From contig DAHVAM010000003.1 of NCBI GenBank assembly GCA_027314605.1, positions 1 through 32,000 on the forward strand: a stretch of 32,000 nt of DNA. Direction: 5' to 3'. The notes below the pieces were generated by a model. It ran no database searches, had not been told where the DNA came from, and saw only the letters and a list, made by a program, of their open reading frames with translations. The position numbers and the translations under genes were made by a program. How positions within the stretch are numbered: position 1 is the stretch's first letter; the number at the start of each line of letters is the position of its first letter. Positions 195 through 8,754 of the stretch are shown piece by piece. The DNA comes from Candidatus Micrarchaeota archaeon. Its GTDB lineage: Archaea > Micrarchaeota > Micrarchaeia > Micrarchaeales > CABMGC01.

Positions 195-1025
195 TCACTG
201 TTCTAAAGAAATTCCTTTTTCAGAGAAGTCAAAACTCCTCATTTTTGGATCTATTTTAGTGTTTCTCATTTTAATTACTTTTGCTGTTCTTAAAATTTCC
301 CCTCCTGTATCATTGAACTCGAACATAACAACGCCATCTGAAACGTATTCACTAACTCCATCGACCGTCAAATGCTGCCCCCCTATGCTTTCGTCAGTTA
401 TCAACAGGTTGGTAGTCCCGAATTTCTGCATTTCATTTACAACAAGATAAGAAATCCTCCTTTCAGAGTGTCCCCTGTAGAAGACTCTCCCCTGGGGGTC
501 CTGGCCTAATGTCGGCATTACCTCGTACCTGTAGGTTTTGTCATTCTGCGCGGCCCGCTGCTCATCCTCGCTTGCGATTGACGGCAGGGCGGAATACGCC
601 AACGGGATTACGAACTGGTCGATATTGATCGCGAAATCGGCCAAGCTGTCGAAAACAAGCCTCTGCGCCTTCGCAGCCTTTATCTCCTCCTCAAGAATGT
701 CAAATAAGTTTATCTTAGGCTTGTCCAAAGGTATCTTCAGGAAGGAGAGCTTGCCTTCTTTCTCCAGCGTGTCAACGTCCCATCCGAATTGCTTTGCCTG
801 GCTCTTGACTATCTCGTTCGGACTGTCCAATGATACATATATGCCGTTTTCACCGGCAAGCGCTCCATTGACAAGGTATTGCATCCCGAAAATTGTTTTG
901 CCTGTACCTGGCTGTCCTACCAGCAGTACATTGAAACCTTTCGGTATACCTCCCTGTATTAGGTCATCAAATCCGGGAATTCCGGTCTTTACCCTCTCCA
1001 CTTTTTCGCCCACTACTAAATTCAT
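195..1025 (-). CDS. KaiC-like single-domain RecA-superfamily ATPase (paralogue 1)
   Basis: N-terminus '[44 protein letters not shown]' (KaiC/RadA-type motif plus Walker A). Walker B-like 'RLVFDSL'. C-terminal '[13 protein letters not shown]...IKMRNT'. ATG start at 1025. Confidence 0.85.
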   Translation of the reverse strand: [276 protein letters not shown]

Positions 1026-1136
1026 AGTAATGTATATAAAATATTGCCTTTGTTCATGATCCTAGAGACATGAGCCTGCAGCATCAGGGTATAACTGCGT
1101 CAAGATGGAACTCCCCTCCAACGCACCAAGCAAAAG

Positions 1137-1166
1137 CCGCTTGACACGAACCAGGCTCTCAAGCGG
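1137..1166. promoter_or_regulatory. 8-bp perfect inverted repeat CCGCTTGA-N14-TCAAGCGG in the KaiC1/KaiC2 divergent intergenic region
   Basis: Read directly: CCGCTTGA at 1137-1144 and TCAAGCGG at 1159-1166. It sits ~20 nt upstream of the putative KaiC2 TATA box. Confidence 0.3.
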
Positions 1167-1186
1167 AAAAGCCAGACAGAAGAATG

Positions 1187-1197
1187 TTTTTTATAGA
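1187..1197 (+). promoter_or_regulatory. TATA-box-like element for KaiC-like paralogue 2
   Basis: 'TTTTTTATAGA' lies about 32-42 nt upstream of the TTG start at 1229, a spacing compatible with a short-leader or leaderless archaeal transcript. Confidence 0.4.
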
Positions 1198-1228
1198 TTG
1201 CCATCGCTCTAATACCTAGGACGATGAT

Positions 1229-6219: not shown

Positions 6220-6798
6220 TCAATCGCCTACCTGCACGCCGTACAGCTCCGGGAACTCCTTCTTCAATTCCTCTCTAACCGAGGCGACAAACCTGCAATG
6301 CTCGTCGCCCAGCGCTATGCATGACGATTCTACGCACTCAAGCTCCTTCCCGTACACGCGGCTCGTGCCTCCCGCTACGAATCCCCTGAAGATGTGGTCG
6401 CAAGGCGCGCTCACCTTGTACCTGAGCGCCGAGCCCACTATGCATTCCCCCATGTTTATCACGACCCTGGGCTTTGCCTCGTCTATGGACTCATACCTGT
6501 AGACTCCCCAGCCGGCGAAGCCGGCCACGTTGCCGAGCAGCGAGAGAACCTCCTTTTTCGATGCTGCGCCATGCGATCCCAAGACCTTCCTTATGAAGTT
6601 CTCAGCCATGTCCTTCCTGCAGTCCTTATAGAGCGCCCTCGCGGCTTCGGCATCCTTTATTATGTCTTCTGTGAAATTGGCCAGGAATTTCTGCTGGAAC
6701 AGCATCAGGCGCTGGCCCCCGAGTACCTCCACCCTTCCTCCCTTGAATGAGACCTGCCTTGCGAGCATAAGTTTTTCGAAAAACGTCAAATCTATCAC
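6220..6798 (-). CDS. XylR_N-like + V4R domain protein, type B (copy B1)
   Basis: 'FEKLMLARQVSFKGGRVEVLGGQRLMLF' and 'APCDHIFRGFVAGG...ELECVESSCIALGDEHCRFVA'. The GTG start overlaps the upstream stop (GTGA). Confidence 0.75.
   Translation of the reverse strand: MIDLTFFEKLMLARQVSFKGGRVEVLGGQRLMLFQQKFLANFTEDIIKDAEAARALYKDCRKDMAENFIRKVLGSHGAASKKEVLSLLGNVAGFAGWGVYRYESIDEAKPRVVINMGECIVGSALRYKVSAPCDHIFRGFVAGGTSRVYGKELECVESSCIALGDEHCRFVASVREELKKEFPELYGVQVGD
6727..6768 (-). repeat. 42-nt block, 41/42 identical between the B1 and B2 paralogues (partner 7861-7902)
   Basis: 'CTCCACCCTTCCTCCCTTGAATGAGACCTGCCTTGCGAGCAT' versus 'CTCCACCCTTCCTTCCTTGAATGAGACCTGCCTTGCGAGCAT'. It encodes MLARQVSFK(G/E)GRVE. 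Confidence 0.9.
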
Positions 6799-7352
6799 AC
6801 CTGCCTGTCATAGAGCTCCTTATATTCTGCCATCAATGCACTCGGCGAGCCCATCTCGAACCTGCATTTGCTCTTTCCCAGCGCGATGCACTCGGTTTCC
6901 ACAAGATCGACATCGGACTTGAAGGCGCATGACGCATTGCCTGCCATAAGCCCCCTTATGACGTGGTCGCACGGCGCATCCGCCTTGCCTTTGAGGTAGC
7001 CGCCTGTGGCCGAGTCTGACGCGGTGAGCGTGCCGCGCATCGCCTTGGCGTCGAGCTCCTCCCACTTCAGGACGCCCCACCCGGCGAATTCCTCTATCTC
7101 TATGGCCCATTTGAGGTAGTCGTCTGCCGAGTAGGATCTCGAGCTGCCTACCTTCAAAGCGAAGTTGTACGCTGCTCTCTTGGCATCGGCATAGAGCAGT
7201 TTCGAAAGCCTCGGATTGTCGTTTATTTTCTCAGTGAGCATGTTGAAGAAGTACTCGGTCACGAGAGCGTAGCGCAGGCCGAAGAGCTGTATGTTGCCGT
7301 CGTTGAAGAGCGCCTGCCTGGCGAGCATGATCTTCTCAAAAAAACTGGCCAT
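6795..7352 (-). CDS. XylR_N-like + V4R domain protein, type A (copy A2)
   Basis: 'FEKIMLARQALFNDGNIQLFGLRYAL' and 'APCDHVIRGLMAGN...VETECIALGKSKCRFEM'. Start trimmed to ATG 7352 (MASFFEK), 7 nt downstream of the B2 stop. Confidence 0.75.
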   Translation of the reverse strand: MASFFEKIMLARQALFNDGNIQLFGLRYALVTEYFFNMLTEKINDNPRLSKLLYADAKRAAYNFALKVGSSRSYSADDYLKWAIEIEEFAGWGVLKWEELDAKAMRGTLTASDSATGGYLKGKADAPCDHVIRGLMAGNASCAFKSDVDLVETECIALGKSKCRFEMGSPSALMAEYKELYDRQV

Positions 7353-7359
7353 GCTGCAA

Positions 7360-7926
7360 CTACACCTGCCTGCCAAAAAACTTCGGGAACTCCTTCTCCA
7401 GCTCCTCCTTCGTAGCTGCGGTGAAGTGGCACCTGCTGTCCCCTAGAGCTATGCACTCCGATTCTATGCACTCCATCTCCCTTCCAAACACGACGCTCGC
7501 TCCCCCTGCTATGAATCCCCTGAAGATGTGGTCGCACGGCGCATCAACCTTGCCTTTGAGGTAGTCGCTGACCAGGCAGTCCCACATGTTCATCAGTATC
7601 TTGTGGTTCTTCTCGTCGATCATCTCATACCTGTAGACTCCCCACCCGGCGAAGCTGGCTATGTTGCTGAGCAGCGAGAGAAGGTCTTTTCTCGAGGTCG
7701 GGCCGTGCGACTTCATCGTGTTATAGACGAATCCCTTGAGCATGCACTCCTTCCCGGTCCTGTAAAGCTCCTTTGTCCCCTCTGTGTCTTTTAAAAGATC
7801 TGCTGTGTAGAACGCAGCAAGCTCCATCGGAAATAGGAGGAGCCTCTGGTTTTCGAGCATCTCCACCCTTCCTTCCTTGAATGAGACCTGCCTTGCGAGC
7901 ATGAGCTTATCGAAGAAGGAGCTCAA
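7360..7926 (-). CDS. XylR_N-like + V4R domain protein, type B (copy B2)
   Basis: 'FDKLMLARQVSFKEGRVEMLENQRLLLF' and 'APCDHIFRGFIAGG...EMECIESECIALGDSRCHFTA'. The TTG start lies 12 nt after the KaiC3 stop, with AGGTG in between. Confidence 0.75.
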   Translation of the reverse strand: MSSFFDKLMLARQVSFKEGRVEMLENQRLLLFPMELAAFYTADLLKDTEGTKELYRTGKECMLKGFVYNTMKSHGPTSRKDLLSLLSNIASFAGWGVYRYEMIDEKNHKILMNMWDCLVSDYLKGKVDAPCDHIFRGFIAGGASVVFGREMECIESECIALGDSRCHFTAATKEELEKEFPKFFGRQV

Positions 7927-7938
7927 GCGCCAGCACCT

Positions 7939-8754
7939 TTATACATAGACCTCCTCCGCCGGCTTTATCTTTATGCCGTCCTTGTTTATCTCGAGGTCGT
8001 GGATGTATGGGCTGTTGTTCGTGTTCCTCATCTTGAGCACCGCAAGCGTCCTGGCCCTCTTGGCCCCTATCAATTGGTTGTACGTGACTATGACTCCGTC
8101 GCAGACGTATTCGCTGACTCCGTCTACAGTGAAGTGTTCTCCTTCTATCTTCTCATCTGTTATGATTATGTTTGTCGTGCCGAGCTTGGAGAGCTCGTTT
8201 ATCACGAGGTAAGTTATGCGCTTTGCCGATCCGCCCTTGTAGAACGCCCTGTCCTTCTCGCTTGTAGCAGGCAGAACCGAGTACCTGAGCTTGTTGTACC
8301 TCTCGACAGTCTCCTGCTCCTTCTCGTCAGCCAGAGGCCCTCCCACTGGGGACAGCGGCACCACGAACTGGTCAACGTTGATCGCGAAGTCGACCAGGCT
8401 GTCGAAGACAAGGCGCGTTGCGCCTGATGCCTTTACCTCGTCCACAAGTATGTCGAATAGGTTTATCTTGGGCTTGTCCAGCGGCACGCGCAGGAACGAG
8501 AGCATGCCCTTGCTTTCCAGGCCGTCGACATTCCAGCCGAATCTCCTCCCCTGGCTCTTCACCATCTCGTTCGAGCTGTCGAGCGAGACGTACAGGCCTT
8601 TCTCCCCTAGGTTCGCGCCGTTCACGAGGTACTGCAATCCGAAGATGGTCTTGCCTGCGCCTGGCTGGCCCACAAGCAGGACGTTGTATCCTTTAGGTAT
8701 TCCTCCCTCCACAAGGTCGTCGAACCCTGGTACGCCTGTCTTTACTCTTTCCAC
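7939..8754 (-). CDS. KaiC-like single-domain RecA-superfamily ATPase (paralogue 3), first gene of the V4R operon
   Basis: '[44 protein letters not shown]', 'RLVFDSL', '[13 protein letters not shown]...LKMRNT'. GTG start at 8754. Confidence 0.85.
   Translation of the reverse strand: [271 protein letters not shown]

Follow-up and report, generated by a model that had tools for sequence, protein, structure and literature searches.

KaiC-like ATPases and V4R-fold proteins in DPANN-type archaea: a conserved gene cluster and a possible multi-input regulatory system

Introduction

KaiC-like ATPases are abundant in archaea and, to our knowledge, inputs or outputs have been identified for very few of them. 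On genomic grounds, and without biochemical characterisation, a role as signalling hubs has been proposed for them (Makarova et al. 2017, summarised in PMC5847659). Here, we describe a gene cluster of this kind at the start of contig DAHVAM010000003.1 from a Candidatus Micrarchaeota archaeon. The whole stretch analysed, 32,000 nucleotides (nt) long, is referred to as the window, and the cluster under study occupies positions 195–8754. It encodes three single-domain KaiC-like ATPases, five V4R-fold proteins, a FIST-domain protein and a small conserved protein designated orf145. That the KaiC and V4R proteins (and FIST/orf145) are functionally linked is very probable; that the window represents a regulatory system with several inputs, conserved in DPANN-type archaea and built of pairs of a KaiC-like ATPase with a V4R-fold ligand binder, is a reading to which we give about even weight.

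As far as the summary in PMC5847659 describes them, the proposed archaeal hubs are single-domain KaiC/RecA-fold ATPases with expanded paralogues, encoded beside putative input domains, and the window resembles them in each of these respects. It differs in having stand-alone V4R pairs, a tandem V4R protein, FIST together with orf145, enzyme neighbours, an Asp-Ser pair in the catalytic region of its KaiC proteins and an insertion in the same proteins. The cyanobacterial KaiABC system shares the KaiC-family ATPase core and offers a precedent for small partners that modulate a KaiC ring; in contrast to it, the window KaiCs are single-domain proteins with Asp-Ser in place of Glu-Glu, KaiA and KaiB genes are lacking, and the partners are unrelated.

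For the V4R proteins, the closest described relatives are the sensor domains of DmpR, XylR, MopR and PoxR. In DmpR, the sensor dimer is interlocked by N-terminal residues 18–45, its cavities are small and enclosed (24–36 cubic angstroms), and Zn is bound beside the phenol cavity by Cys151, Glu172, Cys177 and Cys185 (PMC7264223). The window proteins share with these sensors the fold over their whole ~190 residues, the C...E...C...C pattern and the N-terminal segment that interlocks the dimer in DmpR, and in both cases a sensor is paired with a ring ATPase. However, in the window the sensor forms a polypeptide of its own, and the ATPase has a RecA/KaiC fold and is not of the sigma54-type AAA+ class. 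The window system also lacks the B-linker, the GAFTGA motif, the helix-turn-helix (HTH) domain and any match to XylR_N, and sequence identity is only ~17–21%.

V4R proteins and Bet3/TRAPPC3 of the TRAPP complex belong to one superfamily (PMC2253512), whose members form homo- or heterodimers (PMC2253512; for Asgard TRAPPC3/V4R, PMC10933270). The paralogous TRAPP subunits work as heterodimers (PMC2253512), and archaeal TRAPPC3 forms have a hydrophobic channel and a Zn site (PMC10933270). Bet3/TRAPPC3, Trs31, Trs33 and Asgard TRAPPC3 have a fold homologous to that of the window V4R proteins, and both groups are tied to a P-loop NTPase. TRAPP, in contrast, is a Rab GTPase exchange factor within a large complex, whereas the window NTPase is of the KaiC type and no longin or roadblock subunits are encoded. 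A precedent for the FIST protein is found in NosP, a FIST-domain haem sensor of nitric oxide that controls a partner histidine kinase in trans. Judged from the genes alone, the two are alike in that a stand-alone FIST_N + FIST_C sensor is encoded beside the signalling enzyme that it presumably controls; they are unlike in that the partners in the window are KaiC, V4R and orf145, not a histidine kinase.

Composition of the cluster

The original prediction, made from the DNA letters, described ten open reading frames (ORFs) in this cluster, and the ORF list contains all ten at the positions given here. Each KaiC gene has its own V4R partner or partners. KaiC1 (195–1025, minus strand; Pfam PF06745, E 1.8e-51) is followed by a fused tandem V4R gene. 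KaiC2 (1229–2071, plus strand; E 1.6e-54) faces the gene of a short, 177-aa V4R protein (2064–2597, minus strand; PF02830, E 3.7e-6), the two being convergent with an 8-nt overlap. KaiC3 (7939–8754, minus strand; E 2.9e-50) is the first gene of a five-gene array that continues on the same strand with two a–b pairs of V4R genes: a1 (7360–7926; PF02830, E 1.9e-7), b1 (6795–7376; E 9.9e-8), a2 (6220–6798; E 9.1e-8) and b2 (5630–6223; E 1.4e-5). Upstream of the short V4R gene on the minus strand are the genes for the FIST protein (2670–4040, 456 aa) and orf145 (4044–4481). The three KaiC-like, five V4R and single FIST assignments first made from sequence features are all borne out by family profiles, with the FIST_N and FIST_C matches above their cutoffs.

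An eleventh member had been missed. The 5′ part (~62 codons) of the tandem V4R gene, encoding a protein that we call 'p376', is cut by the window edge at 1–189 on the minus strand (own hidden Markov model (HMM), E 5e-30). Its full-length orthologues are 376 aa long, have no Pfam match and begin 4 nt after the KaiC1 orthologue in two comparison loci, L007 and L015 (loci compared with the window are given L numbers). Both halves of 'p376' have the V4R fold in profile comparisons (hhalign; N-terminal half, probability 98.8% and E 8e-17; C-terminal half, 97.4% and E 1.3e-11). We therefore read 1–189 as the start of a natural V4R–V4R fusion. The second V4R domain aligns just to residue 157 of a1, before the Cys cluster, and is apparently without that cluster.

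Conservation of the KaiC–V4R linkage

A metagenome scan with a KaiC alignment gave 80 loci (31–61% identity), and all loci were then scanned with HMMs built from our own alignments. The 126 KaiC ORFs form 104 clusters at 90% identity, 80 of which have at least 500 nt downstream. A V4R gene lies directly downstream on the same strand of 23 of these 80 non-redundant KaiC genes and a tandem-V4R gene in the same position for a further six (29/80 with a V4R-type gene); within 3 kb on either strand, 46 of the 80 have a V4R-type gene. The background, counted far from any KaiC and leaving out loci fetched through V4R itself, is two V4R-type genes in ~450 ORFs of at least 120 aa.

KaiC and V4R remain adjacent even where KaiC identity has dropped to 31%, the flanking genes are unrelated and the gene order is shuffled. 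The pairing also spans sub-clades with EE, EQ, ES or DS at the catalytic position of KaiC, which indicates that it is old and not tied to the Asp variant found in the window. The cluster, which had been thought unusual for a genome that otherwise looks streamlined, is a conserved feature of a DPANN clade. Unsupported protein families and scattered homologues had been named beforehand as outcomes that would speak against the idea; both were looked for, and the families are supported and the linkage is conserved. Two KaiC sub-clades (the 'TLDE' type and the triple tandem KaiC arrays) have no V4R neighbours in the surveyed loci (L064, L067–L069, L071, L073–L076, L078–L080, L086–L088, L090, L092 and L093; and L035, L042, L047 and L085). 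In the 'TLDE' sub-clade, the Walker B position does not align. A contig search with the a/b V4R alignment returned one locus only, the peptide patterns derived from it being too narrow.

Close relatives of the window (L008–L015; KaiC3 63–80% identical) have the same gene set in another order. There, genes for a PAS histidine kinase, a 365-aa protein, a REC protein and a small ORF precede KaiC3, which is followed by orf147, FIST and KaiC2, the latter convergent with the short V4R gene. Further along, V4R a and V4R b converge on mevalonate kinase, and KaiC1 is followed by the tandem V4R gene and then by a UbiA gene. In every close relative, KaiC3 thus leads into orf145 and FIST, and a single a–b pair is present that is not transcribed behind a KaiC gene. 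This implies that the KaiC3–a–b–a–b array of the window is a lineage-specific rearrangement plus duplication. The original prediction had placed that array at the centre of its model, a position that it loses because it is not ancestral. The convergent arrangement of KaiC with a short V4R gene recurs in L007, L013, L015, L026 and L099. L007 (JAKBPE010000018.1) is labelled as a bacterium and encodes archaeal ribosomal proteins (S4e, L14, L24/L26-type and L5) together with the archaeal-type cluster, marking it as a mislabelled archaeon.

Synteny within the close relatives is weak evidence for a functional tie, since the flanking RtcB, fibrillarin, histidine kinase and REC genes are syntenic there as well. 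A more distant locus is L016 (KaiC 54% identical), which is flanked by SecDF and shikimate genes. In this locus KaiC is followed by two V4R genes, a 193-aa ORF and a UPP synthase gene, with gaps of 8–35 nt between them. The 193-aa ORF (L016 11955–12536, plus strand) has no Pfam match and is missed by the V4R profile; in this lineage, it may represent an additional partner.

KaiC-like ATPases

The three window KaiCs score 175, 185 and 171 bits with PF06745 (gathering cutoff 26.6) and are 54–60% identical to each other. Their best Protein Data Bank (PDB) sequence matches are to the KaiC family (E ~1e-35), and, among named homologues, the closest belong to metagenome-assembled genomes of Micrarchaeota, Marsarchaeota and Diapherotrites. 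Fibrillarin, a tRNA that probably contains an intron and the overall gene content of the window are consistent with a DPANN-type archaeon. Walker A is intact in all three (GQPGTGKT in KaiC1; the form GQPGAGKT is also present), Walker B reads VFD throughout and the K-M-R motif is intact. In an alignment of 18 sequences of the subfamily, Walker A and Walker B are invariant, and a variable insertion of 25–46 aa follows a conserved NIDQF.

The catalytic Glu-Glu position is occupied by Asp-Ser, with VSLDSS standing opposite VTFEES of the KaiC CI domain (KaiC1 reads SLDS); we take the glutamates of VTFEES to be the catalytic pair E77/E78. Asp59, at the first of these positions, is invariant in the 18-sequence alignment. 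Therefore, the ATPase chemistry may differ from that of canonical KaiC. More specific family assignments were tried and rejected. Circadian KaiC models (TIGR02655/NF006799) give 76–123 bits against cutoffs of 408–546, and the window proteins have a single domain of ~275 aa. ArlH/FlaH gives 20–42 bits against NCBIfam cutoffs of 194–215, and the DNA-repair proteins RadA/RadB give 17–33 bits against 172–403, compared with 75–131 bits for KaiC models.

V4R-fold proteins

PF02830 matches all five V4R ORFs (E 1.4e-5 to 9e-8), in each case confined to the last ~45 residues. Against a gathering cutoff of 31 bits, three pass by a small margin and two fall short, with 27.4 and 25.5 bits. The same family matches 38 of 40 KaiC-adjacent V4R relatives. 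In the window, these proteins are 177–197 aa long and have no other domain, neither a sigma54-interaction AAA+ domain nor an HTH. The short V4R protein is homologous to the a and b forms over its full length (hhalign probability 97.6%). The long forms alternate a-b-a-b, with 55% identity between a1 and a2, 49% between b1 and b2 and 34–38% between a and b, a pattern that we read as a tandem duplication of an a–b pair. Together with the natural tandem fusion, this alternation suggests that V4R functions as a two-domain unit, a (pseudo)dimer.

Fold assignment goes beyond the C-terminal Pfam match. A profile of the 40 KaiC-adjacent V4Rs matches MJ1460 (E 8.5e-14), MopR (E 1e-9), a CapR/DmpR-type sensor (E 9e-9; positions 13–177 on residues 6–183), PoxR (E 1e-8; positions 15–182 on residues 24–202) and TRAPPC3 (6aq3; E 2e-3). 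The N-terminal segment also aligns with PoxR residues 19–57. An AlphaFold2 (AF2) model of a1 has a predicted local distance difference test (pLDDT) score of 78 and a predicted template modelling score (pTM) of 0.74. In a Foldseek search with this model, the best PDB matches are DmpR, MopR and PoxR (6iy8, 5kbh and 5frz; template modelling (TM) score 0.63–0.68 over 176–194 columns, probability 1.00). Palmitate-bound TRAPPC3, Thorarchaeal TRAPPC3 and Bet3 come next, at TM ~0.5 and thus below the DmpR-type sensors. Profile and model agree that the ~190-aa V4Rs correspond in fold to the whole effector-binding A domain of XylR/DmpR-type activators. The original prediction had named this domain as XylR_N plus V4R. 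The fold behind that reading holds, and the Pfam XylR_N family itself matches none of the five window V4Rs or the 40 relatives at E up to 0.01.

The a and b forms share four invariant residues, C131, E155, C158 and C166. These align with the C...E-x2-C-x7-C arrangement of MopR, which at the level of sequence is a Zn-type pattern.

FIST and orf145

The FIST protein matches FIST_N (PF08495) at 77.6 bits (cutoff 23.2) and FIST_C (PF10442) at 55.5 bits (cutoff 28.5). NosP was tried as a more specific identity and rejected, as NF041558 gives 48.2 bits against a cutoff of 450. Its neighbour orf145, always found together with FIST, has no Pfam, NCBIfam or PADLOC match. It belongs to a family of 96 clusters at 50% identity (among 1.84e9 proteins), with members in Diapherotrites, Woesearchaeota, Nanoarchaeota and relatives. 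Multidomain proteins with an orf145 domain carry only Ig-like domains besides, or nothing annotated. The AF2 model of orf145 is confident (pLDDT 84), and its best PDB match reaches TM 0.45 at most, which leaves it as the one cluster member without a convincing fold.

The orf145 gene adjoins FIST or shares an operon with it in L008–L015, L026, L036, L060, L098, L099 and L101. In six distant loci (L026, L036, L060, L098, L099 and L101), FIST, orf145, V4R and KaiC genes are all found in one operon. In L026 and L099, this operon runs from orf145 through FIST, a ~400-aa adenylate-forming-like enzyme and an aldehyde dehydrogenase to a V4R gene that is convergent with KaiC. L101 and L036 start with a KaiC gene on the minus strand, continue with V4R, FIST, the adenylate-forming-like enzyme and aldehyde dehydrogenase, and end with orf145, KaiC, V4R and a KaiC-like gene. 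The aldehyde dehydrogenase is detected in the L101 operon and not in that of L036. L102 holds only the distal part of an L101-type operon, from aldehyde dehydrogenase onward, and L098 and L060 show other permutations of the set.

The ~400-aa enzyme is identified weakly, by an AMP-binding/PaaK-like match, and the aldehyde dehydrogenase (~510–530 aa) has an Aldedh match and a weak LuxC match. Such a pair resembles an acyl-activating enzyme and its reductase. Neither of the two is encoded in the 32-kb window, and nor is UbiA. The window series of orf145, FIST and short V4R convergent with KaiC2 is a reduced form of a DPANN-wide operon from which both enzymes have been lost.

Lipid and isoprenoid enzymes as neighbours

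Unassigned neighbours within 4 kb of KaiC–V4R pairs were clustered into families, of which the UbiA prenyltransferases are the most recurrent (nine loci). In L007, L015, L018, L029, L045 and L094, the UbiA gene directly follows a V4R or tandem V4R gene on the same strand, with gaps of 0–16 nt or an overlap. In L020 and L021 the UbiA gene has a convergent orientation, and in L077 it lies close by. These loci carry the KaiC motif variants SLDS, VIDS, SFEQ, SLES, SFKQ and TLEQ, so several lineages are represented. Farther than 3 kb from a KaiC gene, the survey of these loci detected no UbiA gene. The best NCBIfam matches of the UbiA proteins are to the archaeal prenyltransferase PRK12884 and DGGGP-synthase-type models. 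By analogy with L007, L015 and L018, a UbiA gene would be expected just beyond the left edge of the window.

The window itself encodes a mevalonate kinase-like GHMP kinase (4496–5662, plus strand; GHMP_kinases_N + GHMP_kinases_C), convergent with V4R b2. It scores 139 bits with TIGR00549 (cutoff 163). A mevalonate kinase gene is also convergent behind V4R b in L002, L007, L013 and L015, and lies beside KaiC–V4R–UbiA in L021, where the protein passes the same model (196.8 bits). The UPP synthase of L016 scores 151.8 bits (cutoff 109.6). The original prediction had found no recognisable output. This holds for DNA-binding and kinase outputs, none of which is detected by Pfam within 195–8754. It was too pessimistic with regard to enzymes, given the recurrence of UbiA, mevalonate kinase, UPP synthase and the adenylate-forming enzyme with aldehyde dehydrogenase.

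Other enzymes flank the KaiC–V4R pairs of the EE/EQ clade (L030–L034, L038, L043, L051, L061, L063 and L084): a convergent S-adenosylmethionine (SAM) methyltransferase in eight loci, a B12-binding radical-SAM enzyme in six and a GNAT acetyltransferase in four. In five loci of this clade, a ~100-aa unannotated ORF lies just upstream of KaiC.

Proposed mechanism and alternatives

Given their full-length homology to the DmpR/XylR effector-binding domain and TRAPPC3/Bet3, the V4R proteins are expected to dimerise. We propose that they would form N-terminally interlocked a/b heterodimers, with the tandem fusion as the covalent equivalent, and that each dimer would hold a cavity, buttressed by Zn, that takes up a small hydrophobic ligand. 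A second input, conserved to the same degree, would come from FIST and orf145. Filling of the V4R dimer (and of FIST/orf145) with ligand would alter how each binds the KaiC ring, and this binding would in turn set ATP binding, slow hydrolysis, autophosphorylation or the oligomeric state of KaiC. In DmpR the AAA+ domain is gated in cis; the control proposed here would be its counterpart in trans, and we rate such ligand-dependent gating of KaiC at slightly short of an even chance.

The recurrence of UbiA, mevalonate kinase, UPP synthase and the adenylate-forming enzyme with aldehyde dehydrogenase makes isoprenoid or lipid intermediates the most likely class of ligand, and membrane-lipid enzymes the most likely class of target. 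Even so, such a ligand or target is in itself a doubtful proposition, which we hold with much less confidence than the functional linkage. The output would probably be post-translational rather than transcriptional, acting on membrane-lipid/prenyl metabolism or on other protein targets.

Several observations weigh against this regulatory reading. The a–b pair is not co-transcribed with any KaiC gene in the relatives, so co-expression is not universal, and 39 of the 80 surveyed KaiC genes were counted without a V4R gene directly downstream. Asp-Ser at the catalytic Glu-Glu position could mean very low hydrolysis or none. As to the lipid link, UbiA is absent from the 32-kb window, the UbiA matches and that of the window mevalonate kinase are below NCBIfam equivalog cutoffs, and the different flanks of the EE/EQ clade indicate that the link is not general. 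Finally, we found no link of KaiC with V4R, FIST or UbiA in the literature, in a search that did not reach Makarova 2017 itself, where KaiC–V4R pairs may already be described.

The main rival of a signalling role is a role in lipid handling, in which V4R dimers carry or chaperone prenyl or acyl intermediates to UbiA and the KaiC ring powers loading, extraction or assembly. A carrier role has been proposed for BchJ, and Bet3 holds palmitate; the TRAPPC3 matches of the a1 model likewise include the form covalently bound to palmitate. In six loci, the gap from V4R or tandem V4R to UbiA is 0–16 nt, a spacing that points to translational coupling with an enzyme and not with a regulator. The other neighbours (mevalonate kinase, UPP synthase, the adenylate-forming enzyme and aldehyde dehydrogenase) would fit as well, as would the lack of a DNA-binding or kinase output inside the cluster. 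However, the closest structures are those of the ligand sensors DmpR, MopR and PoxR, the cavity of DmpR (24–36 cubic angstroms) could not accommodate a C20 prenyl chain, FIST is a domain of the sensor type, and many KaiC–V4R pairs have no lipid gene nearby. On balance, we consider the carrier role unlikely. The V4R proteins might instead sense oxidants or metal status through their Cys cluster and relay this to KaiC, as the methanogen regulator MsvR senses redox through V4R cysteines. C131, C158 and C166 are invariant, and the only NCBIfam matches of four of the five V4Rs are to the V4R part of MsvR (E 6.6e-5 to 8e-3; b1 has none). These matches are weak, at 16–23 bits far under the 220-bit cutoff; the Cys/Glu pattern is that of the structural Zn site of DmpR and MopR, and the second domain of the tandem V4R is conserved although it apparently lacks the Cys cluster. 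A redox sensor is therefore improbable, and more so than a lipid carrier.

Still less probable is a role in controlling a type IV filament or a machine resembling the archaellum. The KaiCs would then act on an ArlI/ArlJ-type motor in the manner of ArlH, itself a KaiC-family protein, with V4R and FIST as inputs. In L101, a T2SSE gene and two T2SSF genes (15033–18349) are co-directional with the operon that runs from FIST to KaiC–V4R–KaiC and lie ~5 kb downstream of it. This is seen in one locus only, and no T2SSE or T2SSF occurs among the annotated ORFs of the window, several window ORFs never having been scanned; the ArlH/FlaH matches of the window KaiCs (20–42 bits) are weak and far under the 215-bit cutoff for ArlH. 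A DUF7504 gene and several small ORFs separate the L101 operon from its T2SSE/T2SSF genes. Least probable of all, to the point of being nearly negligible, is that there is no functional coupling and that tandem paralogues are kept together by recent common descent. The syntenic flanks within the window clade (RtcB, fibrillarin, histidine kinase and REC) would agree with this; adjacency of KaiC and V4R down to 31% identity, amid unrelated flanks and in shuffled order, speaks against it, as do the V4R–V4R fusion and the operons with overlapping stop and start codons. A known anti-phage defence system was also considered and rejected, as seven proteins compared with PADLOC gave no match at E up to 1e-3.

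Under the regulatory reading, the locus and its relatives define a concrete and widespread pairing of KaiC with V4R dimers, which comes in natural variants (separate a/b proteins, a tandem fusion and a short form). The KaiC-hub concept was anticipated; new here are the defined partners, the fusion and split variants, the orf145 family and the link to lipid enzymes. With four or five small soluble proteins, the general hub hypothesis becomes testable. The system bears on how genome-reduced DPANN archaea control membrane-lipid synthesis, and on the role of V4R proteins, the prokaryotic kin of the TRAPP core, before eukaryotes. A bolder version, which we regard as a long shot, is that V4R (Bet3/TRAPPC3-fold) heterodimers are ligand-controlled regulators of the nucleotide state of KaiC and couple membrane-lipid/isoprenoid status to lipid synthesis (UbiA, mevalonate kinase). 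If true, the TRAPP principle, control of a P-loop NTPase at a membrane by a Bet3-fold heterodimer, would have a functional antecedent in prokaryotes, and an archaeal KaiC hub would for the first time have a defined input and output.

Gene junctions and start sites

Two minus-strand transcription units had been proposed for the cluster, and most junctions within them are tight. On the minus strand, KaiC3 and a1 are separated by 12 nt, a1 and b1 overlap by 17 nt (or are separated by 7 nt if b1 starts at an internal ATG), b1–a2 and a2–b2 overlap by 4 nt each, and 3 nt separate orf145 from FIST. Between FIST and the short V4R gene, there is a gap of 72 nt that contains no TATA-like box. In addition, the plus-strand mevalonate kinase-like gene stands between the two units and has a 33-nt 3′ overlap with V4R b2.

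TATA-like boxes are found upstream of KaiC1 and KaiC2, and a near-match, CTATATAAGG, lies ~45 nt upstream of KaiC3. For the region upstream of orf145, the motif scan gave just one distant box, at -109. No regulatory motif is shared among the four upstream regions, the only shared k-mers coming from the common KaiC1/KaiC2 intergenic region. The start of KaiC1 is probably the GTG at 1001, 8 codons downstream of the ATG at 1025, because the TATA-like box lies just 15 nt upstream of that ATG; with the GTG, KaiC1 would also agree more closely with KaiC2 and KaiC3, which open with M[ED]RVKTG. For V4R b1, an alignment of the V4R proteins makes the ATG at 7352 a likelier start than the TTG at 7376.

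Neighbouring genes

Divergent from KaiC3 is an 81-aa Lys/Arg-rich ORF (8838–9083, plus strand) with no family match, whose position is kept in L008–L015 and L100 (84–91 aa). A REC-domain protein and a PAS histidine kinase are encoded 1.7–6.7 kb past KaiC3, outside 195–8754. The REC-domain protein (10479–11753, minus strand; PF00072, E 1.4e-25) has its REC domain at aa 87–197, with unannotated regions of ~85 aa at the N-terminus and ~220 aa at the C-terminus. It is syntenic upstream of KaiC3 in L008–L015, L014 and L018, all close relatives, and is listed here as context or as a possible partner whose membership in the system is not established. The PAS–HisKA–HATPase histidine kinase (13114–15420, minus strand), assigned by its domain matches and given as context only, is syntenic in L008–L012 and L015. 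A functional tie of the two to the KaiC cluster is possible and indistinguishable from plain synteny.

Further along the window, an RtcB tRNA ligase gene (19553–22567, minus strand; 1004 aa) carries an intein (PF14890 + RtcB). RtcB is intein-free in L008–L012 (497–499 aa), and the insertion coincides with a stretch of low GC content (0.38–0.43) at 20–23 kb. A 101-nt Rfam tRNA match (22699–22799, plus strand; 43 bits), not called by ARAGORN, probably represents an archaeal tRNA with an intron. The 5′ end of a Peptidase_C39-like ORF (22674–23555) overlaps this match, which implies that the true start of this ORF lies further downstream.

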